From Bdellovibrionota bacterium (GTDB lineage Bacteria; Bdellovibrionota_C; UBA2361; JBIKWN01), in NCBI GenBank assembly GCA_044356295.1, contig JBIKWN010000048.1:1-19719 (forward strand): a stretch of DNA of 19,719 nucleotides, in the 5' to 3' direction. A program made the translations under genes and the position numbers. Each line of letters begins with the position of its first letter. Positions within the stretch are counted from its first letter, which is position 1. Below are positions 75 through 9,734 of the stretch, piece after piece. Below the pieces are notes generated by a model. The model saw only the letters and a program-made list of their open reading frames with translations. It had not been told where the DNA came from and ran no database searches.

Positions 75-1607
75 CTATCGGACAATAGTGCCCAACACCT
101 GCTCGGAAATAACTATACTCTGGGCAGCAGTACCATTAGCAGAGGGCTCAGGGGATTGTCTGGTGAGTCGTAAGAGCTTGAATTCAGCCATCAGGGGATA
201 TGTTTTTTTTAGATATGAAAAAGTATGGTCGATAAAATCCCCCGGTGCATAACCAGGAAAGCGAGAGTTCCATTCAGACCTAAGATATGAGTAATCTGAA
301 GGCATGGCAAAGTAACTTTCAAGTTTATCTGAATTGAATTCACTTCCTTTATCAAGGTCTATCCATATTGATGAATTTTTAGCTCTTCCTAATCGCACAT
401 ACATGTAAACTGTAGTCGGTGCATCAAATGAGAACATCCTCCAATGTTGTGGGATTCTTAAATACTGTATTAAAAATTGATTATATTGAGGAAGTGACCA
501 TGACGGCTCCCTGCCACCACTCATCCAAGATTTATAAGAATACAAAGAATGGATGAAGACATGCGAAATAATCATCACTGATAGAATACCAGTTACAATA
601 TGAGCAATTTTTGAAGAATTATTTTTTTCTACTCGGTTAATATCTGATGATTGGATCTTTTTATCATTAAAAATGAGTGCCCAAAAATAATTTGGTACTA
701 CAAGTATCGATAACGACATCATCACAGGGCTAAAAGGACCAAGTATCAGACAGAGTCCAATACCAAAATGTAAAAATAAAATTACACATGCTCCTATAAG
801 TCGAAATATAAAGGAATAAAACGGAAATAAAATAAGGATTGGCAATGCCCCTTCTAATATCAATACAGTTCGACTTAAAATCTGTAATAGCGAGAAAGAT
901 ACATAGTCACGAATGAGCACACCTATAAAAGTCACACGATCTGGAATCCATAAACTATAATATAGTGCGGTTCCTGTTTGCCATGTTACGCCAGTTTTTG
1001 TTAGGAAATTAAAAGTGTAAATGACTGCTATTGATACAAGACATCCTGCAAAAGCAATTGATGAGCCCAGTGAGTCAGAAAGATCCTCTTTACGCTTTAC
1101 CAAGGGTTTATTCAGAAACATTGGCAGCGAAAATGTGAATCTTTTATCGGTTGGAAGAAGAATAGTCCAAAGTAAAATGAGGTGCAGGACAATTGTTCCC
1201 CCGTTTTCTAATAAAAGGTTTCTGTTATTGATTGAAACCGAACAGAGCAAGGTAAGCACTTTAATCCACACACCTCCGATCCCACAGGTAAATAAAGCGA
1301 ATAAAATTGTAGAAAACAGAAAAAAGAGAATCACTTCATTTGGGGAACTGAATGCATCTAGAAACGAGAAAGCATAATCAACACTTGAAAATAACTTATA
1401 ATGATTAGGGAAAACCCCATTATTAGTATAAAATTCTTTGTAGTGAAAAAATCGAGTCAATACATCAGTCAGCAGAATACAACCGATACTGATTCTAAAT
1501 AGTGCTAATGCCCGCAGATCAAAAAAACAGTATCGATGATACAGAAAAGACAGTATCTTTCTTAAAAAGTGAATACTATTTTGGCTAAAACTACTCATAC
1601 ACTTCAT
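75..1607 (-). CDS. HTTM-domain polytopic membrane protein (SdpB / vitamin K-dependent carboxylase-related), with a C-terminal QxWxMF segment
   Basis: 510-aa ORF with many hydrophobic helices. Motifs DLRALALFRISIG, FYTNNGVFP, NRNLLLENGG, WQTGTALYY, LFLHFGIG and PQHWRMFS are typical of bacterial HTTM proteins. Confidence 0.8.
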   Translation of the reverse strand: MKCMSSFSQNSIHFLRKILSFLYHRYCFFDLRALALFRISIGCILLTDVLTRFFHYKEFYTNNGVFPNHYKLFSSVDYAFSFLDAFSSPNEVILFFLFSTILFALFTCGIGGVWIKVLTLLCSVSINNRNLLLENGGTIVLHLILLWTILLPTDKRFTFSLPMFLNKPLVKRKEDLSDSLGSSIAFAGCLVSIAVIYTFNFLTKTGVTWQTGTALYYSLWIPDRVTFIGVLIRDYVSFSLLQILSRTVLILEGALPILILFPFYSFIFRLIGACVILFLHFGIGLCLILGPFSPVMMSLSILVVPNYFWALIFNDKKIQSSDINRVEKNNSSKIAHIVTGILSVMIISHVFIHSLYSYKSWMSGGREPSWSLPQYNQFLIQYLRIPQHWRMFSFDAPTTVYMYVRLGRAKNSSIWIDLDKGSEFNSDKLESYFAMPSDYSYLRSEWNSRFPGYAPGDFIDHTFSYLKKTYPLMAEFKLLRLTRQSPEPSANGTAAQSIVISEQVLGTIVR

Positions 1608-1663: not shown

Positions 1664-3070
1664 ATGGGGCTAAAAATCACGAAACGTCAAAAGAGTATAC
1701 TGATAAGTATCTTCTTGATTACCAGTATCTGGTTACTAGCGGTTACCCCTATATTTAGAATTCCGGTTGTAGGAATTGCGGATAATGGGGATTTTTATAG
1801 GGTTATAAACCCAATAGGATTAGAAAAAATAGGTGGTCGCGAAAGTGGCGACCCAGTACTGCTTACAGAGTACTCAAAACAGAGGCCTATTTTTCGTCGA
1901 CTTTCATCTACGGCAAGTATAGTACCCTTTTTTATAAAGGAATTTCATACATTTCTGTTTGGCATAAGTAAGAACTTAGATATCCAGATTCTTGGAATAA
2001 CACTTTCGATTCTATTCCTGTTCTGTATGCTATTTGCTCACTTTTATCTGCTTATTCCAATTTCGACAATTGGTGTGATCTGTTTTATCTTCTCGGATCC
2101 AAGTTACCTACTCTATCTAAATAGTTTCCTTTCAGAAGGAACTGTTTTTATCAGTTTATTTTTATTAATCTGCTTTTTGATTTCCCACCGTCAAAAAAAA
2201 TCTAAACTGCTTCTCTATTTTATTTTCTTTATTTTTCTTTTTACGAAACATCACTTTGCAATTCTTGGATTACCTTTCTTTGTTTTTTATAGCTTACTAC
2301 ACCGCAGAACAGATTATGGGTTGCTGGTTATTGCTCTCGTAGCTCTTTATTTTTCATTCATTTCGCTCAATCAATTTAGAAAGATCAATATTTTTCTGCC
2401 TAATGCGTTCAATCGATTCGCATCCGGTCCTGCAGCCCTCAGTGACAATCCCACAAAGATACTTATAAACCTTAATCTAAAACCAGAATATCAAAAATAT
2501 GTAAATGCTAATTTCTGGTCACTCAATCTTGCAGATAATAATACGAGTGTTGAATTAAAAGAGATTATTAAAGTACCAATACACGCAATTGCTTTTGAAT
2601 ACTTCAAAGACTCTTCGGTTTTATCAAAGATTTCAGTCAAAGCTCTGGATGCAGTCGCTTTCAGTAAAATTTACACCGCTGCGCACTACTCTGATGTAAG
2701 TCACCCCCTGGAAAGATTTAGACGAGCCATTAGTTTTCGAGACTTTCTAGAAGAATGTTTCTCGAAGTATAAAATAACAACTTGGCTGATACTGATGTTC
2801 TTTGTTTTTTCTGCATTCTGTATCTCAAAAAGACGCATTCGTTATAGTATGGTCTTTCTTTCCTTATCAACGTTACTGATTGTTTCATCAAGTATTCTTG
2901 GTGATGGGCTTTGGGATTTTGAACGACATACTCTGTTGGCAAGGTTTTGTTTTGATATCCTGATAGGCTTATCAATCTATAGTATAATGCAGCACTGTTA
3001 TTATTATTTTTCCTCTACAAGATTCATTCACCAAAGAAAGTTTCTAAGAATTACGGAAGAAAAAGGCTAA
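1664..3070 (+). CDS. WsfD-like polytopic membrane protein, putative GT-C fold (lipid-linked sugar) glycosyltransferase
   Basis: 468 aa with many TM segments. GIADNGDFYRV in the first external loop and YLLYLNSFLSE resemble the WsfD-like family as I recall it. Confidence 0.6.
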   Translation: MGLKITKRQKSILISIFLITSIWLLAVTPIFRIPVVGIADNGDFYRVINPIGLEKIGGRESGDPVLLTEYSKQRPIFRRLSSTASIVPFFIKEFHTFLFGISKNLDIQILGITLSILFLFCMLFAHFYLLIPISTIGVICFIFSDPSYLLYLNSFLSEGTVFISLFLLICFLISHRQKKSKLLLYFIFFIFLFTKHHFAILGLPFFVFYSLLHRRTDYGLLVIALVALYFSFISLNQFRKINIFLPNAFNRFASGPAALSDNPTKILINLNLKPEYQKYVNANFWSLNLADNNTSVELKEIIKVPIHAIAFEYFKDSSVLSKISVKALDAVAFSKIYTAAHYSDVSHPLERFRRAISFRDFLEECFSKYKITTWLILMFFVFSAFCISKRRIRYSMVFLSLSTLLIVSSSILGDGLWDFERHTLLARFCFDILIGLSIYSIMQHCYYYFSSTRFIHQRKFLRITEEKG

Positions 3071-6000
3071 GCTTCCAAGCTAATGTTTCAAAACTTTTTA
3101 AATCCTCGATATCATGACCACCTTGATAGAGATAACTTACCGTGTGTGGTTTTGTATATGCTGGATCGTATTGCCCTCTGACGGTAAGAATCGGAATTTT
3201 CTTTGATTCTGCTAAAGCCTGCAAAGCGCCTTTATCATTACCAACTTGGTCGATGATTGCATCAACAGCGATTCCTTCTTCTAATAGAATTTTTTGTATT
3301 TTATTGCCATAAGAAACTGAATAGCTGACAATTTTTTGATAGTTGTTATGAGTTGCATATTTTTTGACGGCTTTAATAGTAGAAGCTAAAGCTTCTCGAT
3401 TAATACTTTTCTCGAACTTTTTTCCGTAGCCAATCGATCCTGGGTAATTTACCGCCAATACACGGTATCCTAAATTATTAAGCAGATGAAAATATGGGTT
3501 ATATCTTGGCGAAACATTTTCGTTTGGTCCTCCATGCCACCAAACAATTAATTTTTTTAGTGATGGATCGCCAAAAAGCCATGCTGGAATTGTTTCACTC
3601 TTGGAATCAGTTGGAATTTCAACAGCATTGATAGCGATTTGTTGATGAACCGGCCGATCAACAAGGAACTCCCATGTAGAGTCATTACCTAAACGACCGA
3701 GAGTTCGTGGATGGGTACTGTCTGAAATAATTCCGTAAATATCTTGATCAACTTTTACTGCACTATAAACAATAATATTTTTATCAGATTTATATTTAGA
3801 AGTTTCAATCCAATAGAAAGAACGATCTGCAAAACGCTTAAAATCTTGATTGGTATCAAGAAGGTCGAAATCTTCTTGTTCTCGAGCTGTGGCAGTAAGT
3901 TCAATAACCCCAGTTTCTTGCAAATTAATTGAGAAGGATCCCACTCGATCATCTGTTATACCTCTGCCTGTCAAACCGAAAGTGCCATCGGGAAGTGTAA
4001 AGATTTCACGCGCATCTGTTAAATTTTTTAGATTGTTTTCAGTGCAATCATTTTTATGATCATTGCCATTACAAATTATTACAATTGGATTCGTTCGAGC
4101 ACTCTTAATCCCTGCAAATACACCTTGATTGTTGATTGCGCAAAGATCAAAACTCTCAATGGCAACAGTCGAGTCAAGTTGTCGATCCATTGAACTACCA
4201 AGATAGGTGATAACTCTTGAACCATTTTCCTCAAAAGAAATTTTTCTTGAATGTGAATTAAGGCAAATCTTTCCAGTATCAGAATTGCCCTTGTTAATTT
4301 TTGTTAATTCAGTTGTGGCTTTATTATAAACATATAAATTATTTGATTGAGCTTGTGTTGAGACTGATAGGAGCAATACGTGTTGTTCACTCAAAGCATC
4401 AATGACCATCAAATGAGAATTACTGAAATCCAAAGAGGCAGGGATTTGCAATGGAAAAATTTCATTTTTATAATAAACCTTAGGGCGCATGAGCCCATTT
4501 TGATCTGTTTGTGCAAAAAGAACTTTGCCATACCAGTTGATTACTTTACTCTGGGATTTTTTCCATTCTATTGGAATAACGGCATCATCAAAAAAAAGAT
4601 GAGGACATTGTACGAGATAATTTTTAAGTGAATTCTTGGTTTCGTATGAAAGTGCATAAAAAGAAGCAAAAATTTCTATCTGCCTTATCAATTGCTGCGA
4701 GCATTCTTTTGACGAATTAAGTAGAGTTGTAAATTGCTGATTTGCTTCTGCACTATCCCCTGTACGGCTCGCATGAACTGCAGAAATTTCATACGTCGAA
4801 TATTGCTTGGGAAAATAACGCTTCTGTTGTTCAACTAGGGATTGGGCTTCGCTTGTCTTGTTCAGGTTAAGAAACTGATGAAGCTGTTCAGTAACTTTTA
4901 CATTGGTCCAATCCCAATATGTTTTGACTTCGTAAGTTTCATACGGATTTTTATCTAGTTTCGAAATTTGGTTTAATGCAAGAATCCGCAAAGGCATCTG
5001 ATAAAAACACAGACAGATAAATACGACTCCGGTTGCTTTTGCTACATACCATCTTGCTTGGCTCGCAATATTGAATTTTTTTTCAACAAGAAACGTAAAG
5101 ATTAAACAATAAATAATTAAACTTATTAATCTACTTGAAATAGGCTCTGAAAATGCCTGTATACTGACAGCAAATAAACTCAACAATAGTAATGCTTTTT
5201 TTGTTGTAAGCTTCTTCCATCGTAGCAGAATTGCAACTGGCGTAATCAAAAAGAACGTCAAATAAGCCAATCCTCCAATGATTCCTAATTCAACAAAATA
5301 CCTCAGGTATTCATTCATCACGACATTAAAAGACCCCTTGAGTATTCCAAATGAAGAATCAAGAGATAAATCAGAAAGCCTAATTACCAATTGTTTAGCG
5401 CCTATTCCAGTCAAAGGGGATTCATAAAAAAACTGTAATGTTTTCTGCCAAATTAATAGTCGCCCACTCCATGCTGATGGATTAAATATTGAAGTTAGAC
5501 TATTGGTATAGGGACTTGCTGAATTCCAATGTAAGAAATCTTTTAAAGAAAACGCCAAAAGAACAGTACTGATTCCAATGAAACAGATCCCTCTCCTGTG
5601 TTTTTGGCGATAAAAGAGTTTACGAAGTGACGGAATAAGAACAAACATTGCAAAATAAAATGCAAGAATTACCCACCCAGATCTGCATCGAAAAAGTACA
5701 ATACAAACAAGAGACAAAATAATATTTAAACTTGTCCAGAGTCGAATAAAAAAACTTCGTGATAGCAGAAGGAGATAGACACCCAGTGGCAATGCTTGAA
5801 GTAGGAATAAAACAAGTTGATTTCTAAATCCAAACGCTGAACCAAGCCAATCACCACTCACTATTGAGATTGGCATATAAAACCTATTAATAAACATCAA
5901 CAGCAACAAAAGCGTTACAGTAAAATTTATTGAGTAGATGACACCAAGTAAGGTGAATTTTTTCTGTTCAATAAGAATAATAATAGAAAGCAACAGTAAC

Positions 6001-6260
6001 CAGATTCCAATTTCATCAAGTACTAATCCAGGATTTGGAATATTGAACAATTGAAGAAATAATTCACCAACTATGAAATATAAAGGAAAAAGAAGGATCC
6101 ATGGCACATATTTATACCTTGGTCTTATTTCAAAAAAACTTACTATGACAAAGGCAGAGGTTAAGAGGCTCAGTGCGATGAAACGGTTGCTAGCTAAAGC
6201 TTGAAATCCTTGGAGATTAAGTAAACTACCAAATAAAATAAGGATTAGACTGTAAAACAA
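3051..6260 (-). CDS. Fusion of an O-antigen ligase (Wzy_C)-like membrane domain, a helical TPR-like region, a beta-rich (propeller-like) region and an S9-type alpha/beta hydrolase
   Basis: 1069 aa, TTG start. The first ~420 aa are polytopic, with FGFRNQL, RCRSGW, SGRLLIWQKTLQFFYESPLTGIG and MNEYLRYFVELGIIG. The C-terminus has LIVWWHGGP (H909), GYRVLAVNYPGSIGYG, SVSYG (S983), GQYD (D1032) and GGH (H1049). Confidence 0.8.
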   Translation of the reverse strand: MFYSLILILFGSLLNLQGFQALASNRFIALSLLTSAFVIVSFFEIRPRYKYVPWILLFPLYFIVGELFLQLFNIPNPGLVLDEIGIWLLLLSIIILIEQKKFTLLGVIYSINFTVTLLLLLMFINRFYMPISIVSGDWLGSAFGFRNQLVLFLLQALPLGVYLLLLSRSFFIRLWTSLNIILSLVCIVLFRCRSGWVILAFYFAMFVLIPSLRKLFYRQKHRRGICFIGISTVLLAFSLKDFLHWNSASPYTNSLTSIFNPSAWSGRLLIWQKTLQFFYESPLTGIGAKQLVIRLSDLSLDSSFGILKGSFNVVMNEYLRYFVELGIIGGLAYLTFFLITPVAILLRWKKLTTKKALLLLSLFAVSIQAFSEPISSRLISLIIYCLIFTFLVEKKFNIASQARWYVAKATGVVFICLCFYQMPLRILALNQISKLDKNPYETYEVKTYWDWTNVKVTEQLHQFLNLNKTSEAQSLVEQQKRYFPKQYSTYEISAVHASRTGDSAEANQQFTTLLNSSKECSQQLIRQIEIFASFYALSYETKNSLKNYLVQCPHLFFDDAVIPIEWKKSQSKVINWYGKVLFAQTDQNGLMRPKVYYKNEIFPLQIPASLDFSNSHLMVIDALSEQHVLLLSVSTQAQSNNLYVYNKATTELTKINKGNSDTGKICLNSHSRKISFEENGSRVITYLGSSMDRQLDSTVAIESFDLCAINNQGVFAGIKSARTNPIVIICNGNDHKNDCTENNLKNLTDAREIFTLPDGTFGLTGRGITDDRVGSFSINLQETGVIELTATAREQEDFDLLDTNQDFKRFADRSFYWIETSKYKSDKNIIVYSAVKVDQDIYGIISDSTHPRTLGRLGNDSTWEFLVDRPVHQQIAINAVEIPTDSKSETIPAWLFGDPSLKKLIVWWHGGPNENVSPRYNPYFHLLNNLGYRVLAVNYPGSIGYGKKFEKSINREALASTIKAVKKYATHNNYQKIVSYSVSYGNKIQKILLEEGIAVDAIIDQVGNDKGALQALAESKKIPILTVRGQYDPAYTKPHTVSYLYQGGHDIEDLKSFETLAWKLSLFLP

Positions 6261-6273
6261 TCAACTGTGACAA

Positions 6274-6447
6274 TTATGGAGTTATTACTATCCGTTCATC
6301 CACAGATAAGGTCACAGCAAAACCACCAAATGTGGCAAGTAAAACTTGAGGAGCTTCGTAAGCAAGGACTGGAGATGATTGTGTCTCAAGTGAAGAAGTA
6401 TCTTTCAGTTCTTCTTGTACGAATTTTGATTTATCTGAATCTGCCAT
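6274..6447 (-). CDS. Putative RiPP-type precursor peptide, 57 aa: MADSDKSKFVQEELKDTSSLETQSSPVLAYEAPQVLLATFGGFAVTLSVDERIVITP
   Basis: Small ORF on the same strand as, and between, the modification genes. It contains YEAPQV (6343-6360), matching the YxxPxL RRE-recognition motif. I prefer ATG 6447 to GTG 6477 because a -35/-10 pair overlaps the upstream extension. Confidence 0.7.
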   Translation of the reverse strand: MADSDKSKFVQEELKDTSSLETQSSPVLAYEAPQVLLATFGGFAVTLSVDERIVITP

Positions 6448-6455
6448 TACCTTGA

Positions 6456-6485
6456 ATAGTACACCCAAGATATCCACGGTATCAA
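6456..6485 (-). promoter_or_regulatory. Putative sigma70 promoter for the precursor peptide gene (probably leaderless)
   Basis: Minus strand reads TTGATA (6485-6480), 18 nt, TACTAT (6461-6456), 8 nt, ATG (6447). There is no properly spaced Shine-Dalgarno. Confidence 0.55.
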
Positions 6486-6531
6486 GAGAAAAAATGTAAG
6501 GTTTCCGCCTATAAACATCTAGAAAAACAAC

Positions 6532-7785
6532 CTATGTCCTAAGAAACTGACTAATGTGTAAGGTTACCGGTCTATTGAATTCATCGAAAGCATTGTAACA
6601 CTCTAATATTTTAAGCTCTAAATCCTCAATGTTTTGGATCTGGTTATCTCTCAAACAATTGAAATTTGGCAGTTCTAAAATACGACAACTGACCTCAAAA
6701 AGCTTCTCTTCAAATTTGTAACTTTGAGAACAGGTGGTTTCCTTCAATAAATCTTTGCGACTCAAAACTTCTACCATTGTTTGCTGTCCAACAGTTGCCT
6801 CATAGGCAAGAGATAACAAGCTCAGATCTGCAATTAACTTTTCAAGTTCGGAATAATATTTCTCCCTCTTAAGAAAGAAAAATGGGTATTTACTCGTCGT
6901 TAATTTCTTGTAGCGCCTTACTATCGAAAATAGCTCATCAAGCAAACCAAAGCATTGATCGTGTACCGATTGATTTATAACTATTGAATTAATTAACGAC
7001 TGCAGTCGAGTATTTTGAATATCACGTTCAAAAGATTTCCTCATGAATATTGACGTTGCAAGAATATCTTCGAGAGCATTTTCGAAAAAAATGTAAGGCG
7101 GATCAAATAACGGGATTTTTTTAGCAGCAGAAGAAGCCCAGTGGGAAACTTCTTGATACAATCTATTGGCTTCGTTTAGATCAATTGTTGAAGGCAGAAT
7201 AATTGTCAAATCAACATCAGATGAACCTGGAATAATTTCCTTATTCGCATATCGAGAATGAAAATGAAAAATTCCAATATTTTTCTTTTTACACAAAGAT
7301 TCTACATTAAACTTAACAACATCAAGCAAACAGCTCCAAAAAAAGCGAGCAAAACTATAATACTTGAACAAAGAAAAAAACTTTATTAAAAGAGCTTTAA
7401 TTAGTTCTTTAACAGGTTTTAGAATTTTATAACAAAATTCAATGCAGCTCTTGTATGTTTGATCTCTATTGGTTGCCTTCGCTGGAAAAACTCTGCCGAT
7501 ATACATCGATGCCATCACTGGCGGATCTTCATGATGTGATTTTAATGAGCTTGTAATAATTTTTTGGTCTTCAATTCTAACAAACTGATGCCAAATCATT
7601 ATTTGATCACGAATGATAGCAATTATCATTCCTGGACTGAGCTCACTCAGAGGGAATTTTTCAATAAAACATATCTCTGACCGTATGAGTGATGGTTCCA
7701 TACTATCACTCATGACTGGTGCATAAATCCGCTCACCAGAGAAAACTCTTCTTTGGACCTCAAGTAAGATCTGAATCTTTGTCAC
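6532..7785 (-). CDS. S24/S26 (signal-peptidase-like, Ser/His) peptidase domain fused to a Pol-beta-type nucleotidyltransferase domain
   Basis: aa 1-100 contain VMSDSMEPSL (S28), LSPGMIIAI, WHQFV (H66) and EDPPV...YIGRV. aa ~170-200 contain FHSRYANKEIIPGSSDVDLTII (D190, D192). The GTG start overlaps the upstream TAG (TAGTG). Confidence 0.7.
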   Translation of the reverse strand: MTKIQILLEVQRRVFSGERIYAPVMSDSMEPSLIRSEICFIEKFPLSELSPGMIIAIIRDQIMIWHQFVRIEDQKIITSSLKSHHEDPPVMASMYIGRVFPAKATNRDQTYKSCIEFCYKILKPVKELIKALLIKFFSLFKYYSFARFFWSCLLDVVKFNVESLCKKKNIGIFHFHSRYANKEIIPGSSDVDLTIILPSTIDLNEANRLYQEVSHWASSAAKKIPLFDPPYIFFENALEDILATSIFMRKSFERDIQNTRLQSLINSIVINQSVHDQCFGLLDELFSIVRRYKKLTTSKYPFFFLKREKYYSELEKLIADLSLLSLAYEATVGQQTMVEVLSRKDLLKETTCSQSYKFEEKLFEVSCRILELPNFNCLRDNQIQNIEDLELKILECYNAFDEFNRPVTLHISQFLRT

Positions 7786-9230
7786 TACACCAATACCCCA
7801 ATGTTACGAAGATTTTCAGTAAGCAAAGAAAAATCGTTAGCGATGACTCCTTTATCAATATTATACTTTTCACTCGTGGTATTAATCGTAGTTTCTGCAT
7901 CTTTGGTTGAAAGATAGGTCAGAAGCATGAATCGCGCAGTGTGATTAAGTGTAAATCCAGTATTTCCTAGAAGATCTTTTTCATTCCACGCCACGATTCG
8001 AACAATTTCTGGAGTAATGGCAATTCGAAACGCAGCTTGTAAGAGAGTTGGCGTTTGAGATGGAATGCTACTTAGCAAACAATCTTTTTTGATACGTTTC
8101 TCAAAAATAGATGAAATCCACCACCCAATCCAACGCGTTATATGGGCAACAAATGAAAAAAGATAATCTTTGTTCAAAGCTTTTGGTAACGAAGGAAAAG
8201 AGAACCCCCAATAGGTAGGCGCTACGATACCAAGTGAAGGGAGCCACTTTTTAATCATACGTCTATCCCAATACGCTTGTCTAAAAAGTGATCCAAAATA
8301 TCGATATAGGGAACTATGTCCAAGATCTTTGGTAATGACCTCAGCGATGAATGCAATGCATCCACCGAAGTTCAAACATTGAAAACTAAGATCAACATCC
8401 TCCGACCTGCCTAAGGTGGTATCAAAAAATATGTTATTATCAATTAAAAAATCTTTCCGAATCATGACAGCAGCTGTATCGAAAAATGGGATCGGCAATC
8501 TCTTTGCATTTGCAAATCCTTTTATAGACCAATGATTCATCTGATCATGATGTGTTTTTAAGATTCCTCGACTCAAAATTGCTGAGTACTGAATGGCTGA
8601 CTGAACAGCTACAATTTCATCAAGTTCAAACCCAGATAAAGTTTTCTCTATCCATTGTCTTCCAAGTTGAACATCACTATCTATAAAAGCAATAAATTTT
8701 CCCCTTGCAGCTCGAAGTCCCCTATTTCGTGCATATGAACGTGATTTTCTTTTTTCATCTAATATAATCACAGGATATTTAGAAGCCAGAAAAGATGTCC
8801 TATCAGTTGAATTATTATTTACAACAATGACTTCAAAGTGATGTTTTGTTTCTTGATTAAAAATGGATTCAAGGAGTGCTTCTATACTAGCTTCAGCATT
8901 AAAAGCTGGAATGACGAATGAAATAAATGGGTTTATAGGTGATCTAGCTAACATGTTAGCTTTATAGAGTTGAAATAAAACATCAATTAAATCATTTTGA
9001 ATTGATTCTTTATCAACAGTCGGAAATTGAGTAATTAAGAACTCAAGAATTTTATCTTGAGTTCCATATGTTTGAATTAAGGTTGGAAGGTGTGACCAGA
9101 TCCCTGTTAGCGTAATTGTTTTTCCGCCCTGGAAATGAATAATTTCAACAGTAGTATCATCTTTGCTGAAATAGACATCCGGATGAAGAATAAAGCCATG
9201 CTTGATAAAATCGAACAGACTTTTCTTCAT
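7785..9230 (-). CDS. GT2 glycosyltransferase flanked by N- and C-terminal PqqD/RRE-like domains
   Basis: GT2 core: ISFVIPAFNAEASI, EVIVVNNNSTDRT, ARNRG, FIAFIDSD, RSEDVDL. aa ~12-95 (LHPDVYFSK..TLTGIWS..ESIQNDLIDVLFQLYKANML) and aa ~405-481 (FTLNHTARFML..EKYNIDKGVIANDFSLLTENLRNIGVL) follow the three-strand/three-helix PqqD pattern. Confidence 0.8.
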   Translation of the reverse strand: MKKSLFDFIKHGFILHPDVYFSKDDTTVEIIHFQGGKTITLTGIWSHLPTLIQTYGTQDKILEFLITQFPTVDKESIQNDLIDVLFQLYKANMLARSPINPFISFVIPAFNAEASIEALLESIFNQETKHHFEVIVVNNNSTDRTSFLASKYPVIILDEKRKSRSYARNRGLRAARGKFIAFIDSDVQLGRQWIEKTLSGFELDEIVAVQSAIQYSAILSRGILKTHHDQMNHWSIKGFANAKRLPIPFFDTAAVMIRKDFLIDNNIFFDTTLGRSEDVDLSFQCLNFGGCIAFIAEVITKDLGHSSLYRYFGSLFRQAYWDRRMIKKWLPSLGIVAPTYWGFSFPSLPKALNKDYLFSFVAHITRWIGWWISSIFEKRIKKDCLLSSIPSQTPTLLQAAFRIAITPEIVRIVAWNEKDLLGNTGFTLNHTARFMLLTYLSTKDAETTINTTSEKYNIDKGVIANDFSLLTENLRNIGVLV

Positions 9231-9242
9231 GCAAATTAGAGA

Positions 9243-9716
9243 TTAATCGACTATCAATCCTTTGACGACATTCTTGAGTTCTTGAGCCTGTTCAATCGTT
9301 GAAGAATCTGTGCGCTTTATTAATTTTTCATAAATCGTAGCGACCTTTTTATAGGGCTCAGGGCGATCACCGAGGGTTTTGATCTGTTCAGAAATCTTAA
9401 CTTCAATATCTTTTAGAGCTTTCTGATTTTTTTCTTTCTCTTCAGGTTTTGATTTTTCAAGTGCTGCTGTTGCAACTTCAAACTCATCAAATGTTGCTTG
9501 TACGATAGCTAATTGTTCTGCGCCGGATTTCTGTTTGGTAATCTGCGCGTCATTATAAAAACGAAATCCAAAAAATCCAATCGCTGCAATAAGGGCGATA
9601 TAAAATACAGGTTTTGAAATTACGTTAACAATGTCACTTAATTTCTGAATCTCATCTTCTGCAAATTCAGTTTGACCATCAAGTACACGGAGTGAAATTT
9701 TTTTCTGTTCTGCCAT
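9243..9716 (-). CDS. Hypothetical single-pass membrane protein with a helical C-terminal region
   Basis: One TM segment (VFYIALIAAIGFFGF) followed by a charged helical region. ATG 9716 is preferred to TTG 9722. Confidence 0.6.
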   Translation of the reverse strand: MAEQKKISLRVLDGQTEFAEDEIQKLSDIVNVISKPVFYIALIAAIGFFGFRFYNDAQITKQKSGAEQLAIVQATFDEFEVATAALEKSKPEEKEKNQKALKDIEVKISEQIKTLGDRPEPYKKVATIYEKLIKRTDSSTIEQAQELKNVVKGLIVD

Positions 9717-9734
9717 ATTCAAATAAAGTTTAGA

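Follow-up and report, generated by a model that had tools for sequence, protein, structure and literature searches.

A candidate RRE-dependent peptide-modification cassette with a peptidase-nucleotidyltransferase fusion in a Bdellovibrionota genome

Introduction

Among the pathways for ribosomally made peptides with post-translational modifications (RiPPs), lasso pathways comprise a precursor (A), a RiPP recognition element (RRE; B1), a Cys protease (B2) and a cyclase (C). The available text of one lasso study places the conserved leader motif YxxPxL at positions -17 to -12, next to a Gly1-Asp8 ring, and describes mutation of the three motif residues to test phosphorylation and leader removal (PMC10368454). 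Lasso tailoring enzymes, as given in the available parts of the respective papers, include the nucleotidyltransferases (NTases) PsmN and BsfN and the membrane family-2 glycosyltransferase (GT2) IgtG (PMC9266682, PMC11912497, PMC10368454). Fusions of an RRE to a GT2 domain (PF00535) are listed as unexplained candidates for new RiPP enzymes in the available text of RRE-Finder (PMC7470986) and of a 2025 structure-based survey (PMC12710340). Here we analysed a 19.7-kb contig of a Bdellovibrionota metagenome-assembled genome (2.96 Mb, 93.6% complete); the whole contig, 19,719 nucleotides, is called the window. We consider it likely that a cassette at 6274-9230 is a biosynthetic cluster for a modified ribosomal peptide and represents an undescribed family of RRE-dependent RiPPs.

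Sequence alone seldom leads to the prediction of a new RiPP class, and each such class brings new enzymology for peptide engineering. The cassette encodes a precursor-like peptide, an RRE-GT2-RRE protein and P2, a fusion of an S24/S26 serine peptidase with an NTase. We compared it with related loci and with the described systems nearest to it, and weighed other explanations for its gene content.

Results

Recurrence of the peptide, the RRE and the peptidase-nucleotidyltransferase

Of the 124 genomes of the phylum, six (G000 being one) had S24/S26-NTase fusions detected with a P2-family profile; the proteins of the five further genomes are longer (627-691 aa). The same profile also matched four short proteins with the S24/S26 domain only (G099, G106, G069 and G097). 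Seven loci were examined, namely the window, the metagenome contig L014, and G101, G019, G113, G114 and G120 (Table 1). As the six loci other than the window all have, beside the P2 homologue, a small open reading frame (ORF) with the leader motif and at least one PqqD/RRE, the conserved core of the system, judged by gene content, appears to be peptide, RRE and S24/S26-NTase.

PqqD/RRE domains were present in 7/7 loci, fused to the GT2 in the window and L014 and encoded by a stand-alone gene in the other five (Pfam E 2.3e-12 to 2.8e-10). In G101 and G019 this separate PqqD gene occupies the position of the window's N-terminal RRE, and a GT2-PqqD protein follows (PqqD at 28.8 and 33.1 bits, respectively). 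By comparison of the loci, the GT2 protein of the window and that of L014 thus seem to have gained, at the N-terminus, an RRE that is free-standing elsewhere. The GT2-RRE itself was found in four loci, and the three without GT2 retain peptide, RRE and S24/S26-NTase. Because of this partial distribution, we regard the GT2-RRE as a tailoring module with its own docking domain. The defining enzyme is the peptidase-NTase fusion and not the GT2.

To describe the small ORFs, we used a motif fixed beforehand and a stricter one. Among 2323 small ORFs from 255 kb of other, unrelated loci, 28 had the a-priori motif Y..P.[LVI]. The strict motif Y..P.[LVI].{4,6}[LIVF].[GA][FGL], which was defined after the matches had been seen, was found in exactly one small ORF in each of the seven loci, within about 400 bp of the enzyme genes, and in none of the same 2323 small ORFs. 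The recurrence of a motif-bearing small ORF beside the same enzymes in six other loci argues that the observation is more than chance. The small ORF is syntenic and conserved, which supports the earlier view of it as a precursor-like peptide.

Table 1. Precursor-like peptides, from the conserved Tyr to the C-terminus, and gene order at their loci
Peptide	Sequence, Y to end	Gene order
Window	YEAPQVLLATFGGFAVTLSVDERIVITP	As in L014
P0133	YEAPQVILATFGGFAVTLSVDEQSTILP	
L014	YVSPQLKVSVFGGLALTAQLETAIPDEPIL	MiaB, nuclease, membrane protein, GT2, P2, 62-aa ORF
G101	YSKPSVGAPEKLGGFFMT	Peptide, PqqD, GT2-PqqD, S26-NTase
G019	YTAPRLNRPIKLIALCSE	Peptide, PqqD, GT2-PqqD, S26-NTase, GT1, GT2
G120	YRKPEIEQPKEILGFCANVIYELPT	Peptide, PqqD, S24-NTase, GNAT
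G113	YNKPCLENGSKVEGFGATSIETLNEAGELVEEGSLGYSGEFINLEM	PqqD, S24-NTase, then convergent peptide gene behind ABC-2 transporter genes
G114	YSKPEVSNSERISGFGASGESFTESQTEGAVEEGALGYSGELIELMF	PqqD, S24-NTase, then convergent peptide gene behind ABC-2 transporter genes

The same loci bear on the idea of an ordinary envelope-glycan island, in which the GT2 would make a lipid-linked sugar for GT-C-type membrane proteins (WsfD-like, Wzy_C), the PqqD-like domains would serve protein contacts and the small ORF would be no substrate. Polytopic glycan-type neighbours in the window (a WsfD-subfamily protein, Wzy_C and an unknown protein with nine hydrophobic segments) agree with this idea, as do the GT1, GT2, acyltransferase and UDP-GlcNAc 2-epimerase genes that continue the G019 locus and the PMT_2 and ABC-2 transporter genes of G113. 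Nevertheless, it leaves the motif-bearing small ORF and PqqD beside the S24/S26-NTase unexplained in all seven loci, three of them without any GT2; the glycan-type neighbours vary between loci, and neither the GT2 protein nor P2 has a predicted membrane segment. We therefore consider this explanation unlikely.

At two of the loci further genes accompany the peptide. In L048 (9845-15597) and L052, from G113 and G114, a minus-strand unit ends with the peptide gene; its other genes encode an unknown protein of 340 aa, an ABC-2 permease and an ABC ATPase. Next come genes for a PMT_2 membrane glycosyltransferase and for a phosphodiesterase/PglZ-like enzyme. The ABC, PMT_2 and PglZ-like genes might provide export and further tailoring for the subfamily that has no GT2. 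In L014, a 315-aa ORF (5680-6627, minus strand) is convergent with the peptide gene and encodes a Cys-rich N-terminal part followed by about 50 tandem T-N-Q-T repeats.

The precursor-like peptide and its predicted junction

The 57-aa ORF with YEAPQV named in the initial annotation is present, and its gene is single-copy in the genome. The peptide has a polar N-terminal part, then Y30-E-A-P33-Q-V35 and F40-G41-G42, and a variable C-terminal part from F43; it contains no Cys. A close variant, P0133, known as a sequence without its contig and hence counted among the eight peptides and outside the seven loci, is 84% identical and differs mainly in the last six residues. The 62-aa ORF of L014 shares Y-x-x-P-Q-[VL]-x4-F-G-G-x-A-x-T with the window peptide. 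The Tyr and Pro are invariant in all eight peptides and the leader motif is kept, while the C-terminal part is variable and has between 4 and 32 residues; RiPP precursors show the same conserved leader and variable C-terminal part.

Type I signal peptidases favour a small residue at position -1. The predicted cleavage was placed between G42 and F43, because hydrophobic-x-[G/A] followed by F or L fits this rule. A hydroxyl residue lies four residues past this junction in 5 of 7 loci, and a hydroxyl or thiol is found within the first four residues in 4/4 GT2-bearing loci, which makes Thr46 a candidate acceptor. Counted from the junction, residue 1 is F or L and an acid stands at position 8 in four of the eight peptides. 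The canonical lasso register, with the Tyr at -17, was also tried and was dropped for the inconsistent cores that it gave in the window and L014.

These peptides could also be read as precursors of a non-canonical lasso-like or lariat product, with an S26 peptidase replacing B2, the NTase taking over from the Asn-synthetase-like cyclase by activating an Asp or Glu side chain with ATP, a macrolactam closing onto the new N-terminus and the GT2 decorating it. The leader motif matches the lasso YxxPxL as given in the available text of PMC10368454, the C-terminal RRE of the GT2 protein has lasso_PqqD_Strm as its best NCBIfam match, and RRE, protease and NTP-using enzyme repeat the three-part logic of B1, B2 and C. 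If F43 or its equivalent is counted as residue 1, the window, P0133, L014 and G120 have the acid at position 8, G113 has it at position 7 and G114 at position 6; with about five lineages this pattern is statistically indistinguishable from chance. The predicted four-residue cores of G101 and G019 would be too short for a ring, the first core residue is F or L instead of the usual small residue, and the Tyr lies 13-14 residues from the junction, not 17. Moreover, pol-beta-type NTases are known to act on hydroxyls, not on carboxylates. A lasso-like or lariat product is thus very unlikely in our judgement.

The rest of the genome was searched for lasso enzymes with Pfam. As this whole-genome search missed the window's own PqqD (31.3 bits in the protein scan), its negatives are reliable for strong matches only. 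Within this limit, neither the contig nor the genome, which is 93.6% complete, gave a match to PF13471 (B2, Transglut_core3). PF00733 matched five places, and the two full-length homologues among them are no lasso cyclases: both keep a strong GATase_7 domain (E 2e-39 and 2.5e-47) and are surrounded by the GT1, PMT, hexapeptide-transferase and oxidoreductase genes of polysaccharide loci. Two weaker matches had E 6.8e-9 and 3.2e-5. The only radical S-adenosylmethionine (rSAM) enzyme nearby is MiaB (TIGR01574, 473 bits against a cut-off of 355). These searches thus found no lasso cyclase, lasso protease or RiPP-type rSAM partner, in agreement with the initial annotation, which saw no cyclase or rSAM enzyme in the cluster.

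P2, a peptidase-nucleotidyltransferase fusion

P2 had been described as a peptidase-NTase fusion, and profile, fold and residue conservation agree with this. P2 gave no Pfam match at E 0.01; at E up to 1 the match was Peptidase_S24 (E 0.013), whose 15.6 bits lie under the cut-off of 23.3. The P2-family profile matched human SEC11A in the PDB (E 2.5e-5), with the S-M-x-P, H-R and downstream Asp positions aligned, and the model of residues 16-105 resembled SipA, LexA and SEC11C (VIA Z 8.8-9.9). S28, M29, H66 and D87 are invariant in nine P2-family proteins, so P2 has the Ser-His and conserved Asp in an S24/S26 fold that characterise S26B (Sec11/SipW). The equivalog model for archaeal-type signal peptidases gave 20.1 bits against a cut-off of 51.85.

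Residues 150-370 of P2 matched ANT(3'')(9), AAD(9) and ANT(4') with Z 7.1 (186 residues aligned), 7.0 and 6.2, a range flagged as possibly non-specific, and Foldseek matched the NTase half to 3c18 (probability 0.97, E 0.02). G187, S189, D190 and D192 of the NTase motif G187-S-S189-D190-V-D192 are invariant in the nine proteins. Two homologues exceed the NTP_transf_2 cut-off of 21 (L052, 26.4; L048, 24.9), and the S24 cut-off is reached by one of these two and by the database homologue P0124. P2 has no hydrophobic segment. ESM Atlas gave leads only (0.81), which were NTP_transf_2 clusters in the case of P2 and Wzy_C clusters in that of the window's large membrane protein.

Close relatives of P2 are few. 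A single-sequence search found only three at E<=1e-10 among 1.84 billion representatives, single-sequence P2 searches in 40 relatives returned the window itself only, and a metagenome scan with P0002 gave no match.

With a LexA-like self-cleaving S24 domain, a minimal nucleotidyltransferase and the small ORF as regulator, the locus could instead be a module for defence or regulation or a toxin-antitoxin system. S24 domains and MNT-type NTases are each found in systems of these kinds, the helical domain of P2 is similar to HEPN/MNT-associated bundles (5yep, Z 7.0; 1jog, Z 6.7), and the island varies between near-identical strains. However, PADLOC had no match for the three window proteins tested and only weak generic NTase matches for one homologue. 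The peptidase half is of the Ser-His Sec11 type and has no invariant Lys, which LexA-type self-cleavage needs, and PqqD/RRE domains are the peptide-docking domains of RiPP pathways. We regard such a module as extremely improbable.

The RRE-GT2-RRE protein

The catalytic domain of this protein was identified as Glycos_transf_2 at residues 104-262 (Pfam E 2.5e-28), with PDB profile matches down to 1.4e-27 (chondroitin synthase) and Foldseek matches to RmlT and TarP at E about 1e-11. D184-S-D186 and E277-D278 are invariant across five GT2 orthologues. Q318, W321, D322 and R323 are likewise invariant in the five; this we take to recall the Q-x-x-R-W box of chain-forming family-2 glycosyltransferases, and if the likeness holds, more than one sugar might be added. 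Searching the genome contigs with the GT2 alignment gave only seven distant GT2s (22-27% identity), which were not used.

Both terminal domains are RRE-like, as the initial annotation had it, the N-terminal one on weaker grounds. The C-terminal domain matched PqqD (PF05402) at residues 423-479 with 31.3 bits, above the Pfam cut-off of 23.4. Its best NCBIfam match was lasso_PqqD_Strm at E 8.5e-7, far below the cut-off of that model, and the isolated domains matched it at E 2.4e-5 and 2.4e-6. It also aligned to the stand-alone PqqD proteins of sister loci (hhalign E 3.3e-5). The N-terminal domain matched PqqD with 18.8 bits (E 0.0021), under the cut-off; PqqD was nonetheless the top Pfam match of this domain in both the window protein and the L014 orthologue. 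Its AlphaFold2 (AF2) topology is a strand-rich start of three to four strands followed by three helices (per-residue confidence, pLDDT, 73-89), and it aligned to the C-terminal domain (hhalign E 1.9e-4) and to the stand-alone PqqD proteins of sister loci (E 2.8e-4).

The GT2 protein also has no hydrophobic segment, and since this holds for P2 too, both are probably cytoplasmic. A predicted complex of the GT2 protein with the peptide scored 0.59 (best of three controls, 0.00). It thereby passes a mark that 116 of 157 solved complexes attained, as did 2 of 215 mismatched pairs, but lies in the range of 0.60 or under, where only 18 of the 157 solved complexes and both of the passing mismatches fall. 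Contact agreement between the runs was at least 44% and the pLDDT of the partner at least 39. The predicted complex lends weak support to binding of the peptide by the GT2 protein.

The cassette in its genome

The four co-directional, tightly spaced genes of the initial annotation were confirmed on the minus strand (Table 2). TAGTG at 7785 joins the GT2 stop to the overlapping GTG start of P2, and the gap between the TAA of the peptide gene and the TTG that starts the large gene is exactly 13 nt. Scans for promoters (20 vs 26.4) and terminators (5 vs 4.1) gave no excess over the numbers expected from shuffled sequence.

Table 2. Features of the window
Feature	Position	Strand	Size or residues, and remarks
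RRE-GT2-RRE protein	7785-9230	-	481 aa; Pfam, NCBIfam, PDB profile, Foldseek, AF2
N-terminal RRE-like (PqqD-like) domain	8946-9230	-	Residues 1-95
GT2 catalytic domain	8241-8933	-	Residues 100-330
Invariant Q, W, D, R of the GT2	8253-8279	-	Residues 318-326
C-terminal RRE (PqqD) domain	7788-8045	-	Residues 396-481
P2, Sec11/SipW-type S24/S26 serine peptidase with pol-beta-type NTase and helical domain	6532-7785	-	417 aa
Peptidase domain of P2	7471-7740	-	Residues 16-105
NTase and helical domain of P2	6535-7338	-	Residues 150-417
Precursor-like peptide gene	6274-6447	-	57 aa from ATG; 67 aa from upstream GTG at 6477
Wzy_C / S9-like membrane protein	3051-6260	-	1069 aa
Single-pass membrane / coiled-coil protein	9243-9722	-	159 aa; after the nuclease gene
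WsfD-subfamily glycan hexose transferase	1664-3070	+	Polytopic; E 1.6e-35
Polytopic protein left of the cassette	75-1607	-	510 aa; 9 hydrophobic segments; no Pfam or NCBIfam match

Upstream of the cassette and co-directional with it lie genes for MiaB, a bifunctional-nuclease-domain protein and the 159-aa single-pass membrane protein, which are core genes with 81%, 87% and 57% identity, respectively, in a same-genus genome. Other families of the order have 264-274-aa proteins of similar build at the position after the nuclease gene, and the 159-aa product is a fast-evolving, shortened core gene outside the cassette.

Compared with L014, the flanks of the window have 81-86% protein identity, the GT2 47% and P2 34%. 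In the same-genus genome G002, the flank (MiaB, nuclease, membrane protein) is 97% identical to L014, and the GT2 and most of P2 are missing; a 55-bp remnant of the P2 3' end is retained just before the contig end (L034, G002:C9, 131-181 vs L014 5080-5130). Because the cassette is deleted to this remnant in G002, it appears from these comparisons to be an accessory island that evolves fast and is both acquired and lost, with presence/absence polymorphism between near-identical strains.

The cassette was present in two lake-water sequencing runs of different studies. One of these may be where this DNA comes from, and the other spans the whole 6.8 kb at >=99% identity in 17 of 21 pieces; no RNA run was listed among the carriers. 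In a third lake-water run (X3), short contigs that cover the peptide gene (6135-6520) show 5-15 differences per 140 nt, and 1 nt is inserted behind 6488; these contigs probably come from a strain encoding the P0133 peptide variant.

The large gene downstream of the peptide gene, with which it is probably co-transcribed, had been proposed as a Wzy_C-S9 fusion and a member of the system. Its product has about 15 hydrophobic segments in the first 430 residues, and Wzy_C (PF04932) was confirmed at residues 179-334 (46.6 bits, cut-off 31.7). The S9 part stayed below threshold (PF00326 in the C-terminal region, 18.1 bits vs 22.6); a PDB phmmer match of this region to 5l8s (E 2.5e-4) covers only 50 residues, and triad candidates were read by eye, unaligned. 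The gene is absent from the six other loci and has no orthologue in 40 relatives, so its membership did not hold up; we regard it as a neighbour or, at most, an add-on that is specific to this strain and lies outside the conserved system. The convergent WsfD-subfamily gene overlaps its end by 20 nt.

Glycan-type membrane genes lie near several loci, WsfD-like in the window and PMT_2 with an ABC-2 transporter in G113, and G019 has extra soluble glycosyltransferases. As these are different genes in each locus, an envelope glycoconjugate is a possible but unsupported product.

Discussion

With the domain identities, catalytic-residue conservation and peptide synteny given above, we infer a modified-peptide pathway, including what its substrate is, which sites are modified, in which order and by which chemistry, as follows. 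The leader would dock on an RRE. The GT2, with its own RRE, would glycosylate a hydroxyl within the first four residues past the junction, Thr46 being the candidate. With an NTP, the NTase half of P2 would nucleotidylylate a hydroxyl, either on the peptide or on its sugar; O-nucleotidylylation is proposed because the domain resembles enzymes that adenylylate hydroxyl groups. The peptidase half of P2 would then cut the leader after hydrophobic-x-[G/A], between G42 and F43. In the window, the N-terminal RRE may serve P2 and the C-terminal RRE the GT2.

A bolder version would make the S24/S26-NTase the class-defining enzyme of a new RiPP class that follows lasso or lariat logic with unrelated folds. 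The serine peptidase would expose a new N-terminus and the fused NTase would provide NTP-driven activation, either closing a ring onto the conserved acid or leaving a peptide-nucleotide (or peptide-phospho-sugar) linkage that is extended by the RRE-GT2. We hold this version to be improbable.

Several points weigh against a RiPP cluster. The cassette is known from sequences and predicted structures alone, and the evidence comes from one small phylum and about five independent lineages, the window with L014 and G113 with G114 being pairs. The strict motif is post hoc, the ATG of the peptide gene has no clear Shine-Dalgarno sequence before it, and two of the predicted cores (G101 and G019) are only four residues long, so that the cleavage site and the assignment of a "core" may be wrong. 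In the enzymes, the window's own P2 has no Pfam match above cut-off, a middling NTase fold match (Z 6-7) and a degenerate K-G-D box. In the GT2 protein, the N-terminal RRE stays under the Pfam threshold and the stretch between residues 333 and 428 is poorly modelled, and the predicted complex with the peptide is a weak pass. The window's cassette also contains no transporter.

The initial annotation had named three kinds of finding that would speak against its interpretation, namely GT2 ends that are not RRE-like, homologous loci without a conserved small ORF, and a lasso cyclase or rSAM enzyme elsewhere; our searches turned up none of them. Its view of the peptide, the RREs and the fusion stands, and its inclusion of the Wzy_C-S9 protein does not.

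The conserved kit has no cyclase, rSAM, YcaO or Lan enzyme. A soluble Sec11-type peptidase with an aminoglycoside-NTase-like domain points to peptide nucleotidylylation coupled to leader removal, and we know of no RiPP class with this as its class-defining chemistry, nor did our literature searches reveal one. For RRE-guided family-2 glycosyltransferases, the RRE-GT2-RRE protein would provide the first case in which a candidate substrate has been identified. G101 (5.1 Mb, 3 contigs) looks nearly closed and is possibly a cultured strain, which would make the prediction testable.

Comparison with known systems

Literature searches on RiPPs and RREs, NTases, glycosyltransferases, signal peptidases, lasso tailoring and MftF returned no description of the cassette's enzyme kit, and each described system shares a part of it. 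In glycocins, SunS-type GT2 S-glycosyltransferases act on a ribosomal peptide, as is proposed here. However, the glycocin acceptor is Cys, which the window peptide lacks, the cassette has no peptidase-containing ABC transporter, and the SunS model TIGR04195 gave the window GT2 18.8 bits against a cut-off of 350, so membership fails. To our knowledge, glycocin glycosyltransferases use no PqqD-type RRE.

Mycofactocin is an RRE-dependent RiPP pathway, and in NCBIfam the GT2 domain matches its MftF (TIGR03965) best, at E 1.7e-22. The match amounts to 79.9 bits against a cut-off of 280, with only the catalytic core aligned, and none of the MftA/B/C/D/E genes is present here.

P2 combines features of two enzyme groups. 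The Ser-His-Asp positions align with the SEC11A member of Sec11/SipW (S26B), and the G-S-x-D-x-D motif and a two-domain fold like that of ANT(3'')(9) and ANT(4') are shared with ANT/KNTase-type enzymes. P2 differs from both as a soluble fusion encoded beside an RRE and a leader-bearing peptide.

The RRE-GT2 fusions of RRE-Finder and the 2025 survey have the same PqqD-like RRE on a family-2 glycosyltransferase as the window protein. The available text of both sources lists the fusion without an S24/S26-NTase partner, precursor motif or product, and the cassette family may be among their examples.

Lasso pathways are the nearest in logic. The cassette RRE has a B1 model as its best NCBIfam match, its leader is also Y-x-x-P-x-L/V/I, and in both systems a leader protease is paired with an NTP-using enzyme. 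NTase and GT2 tailoring are likewise precedented in lasso clusters, where these enzymes are described, in the available text, without fusion to a peptidase or an RRE; those of the cassette are fused. IgtG is a membrane GT2-deacetylase, and the available text of its paper mentions no RRE, whereas the cassette GT2 carries RREs. B2 is a transglutaminase-type Cys protease, whereas the cassette protease is a Sec11-type serine peptidase fused to an NTase, and the distance from the Tyr to the junction is 13-14 residues in the cassette and 17 in lasso leaders. Together, the leader motif and the RRE suggest that lasso recognition modules have been re-used by unrelated enzymes.

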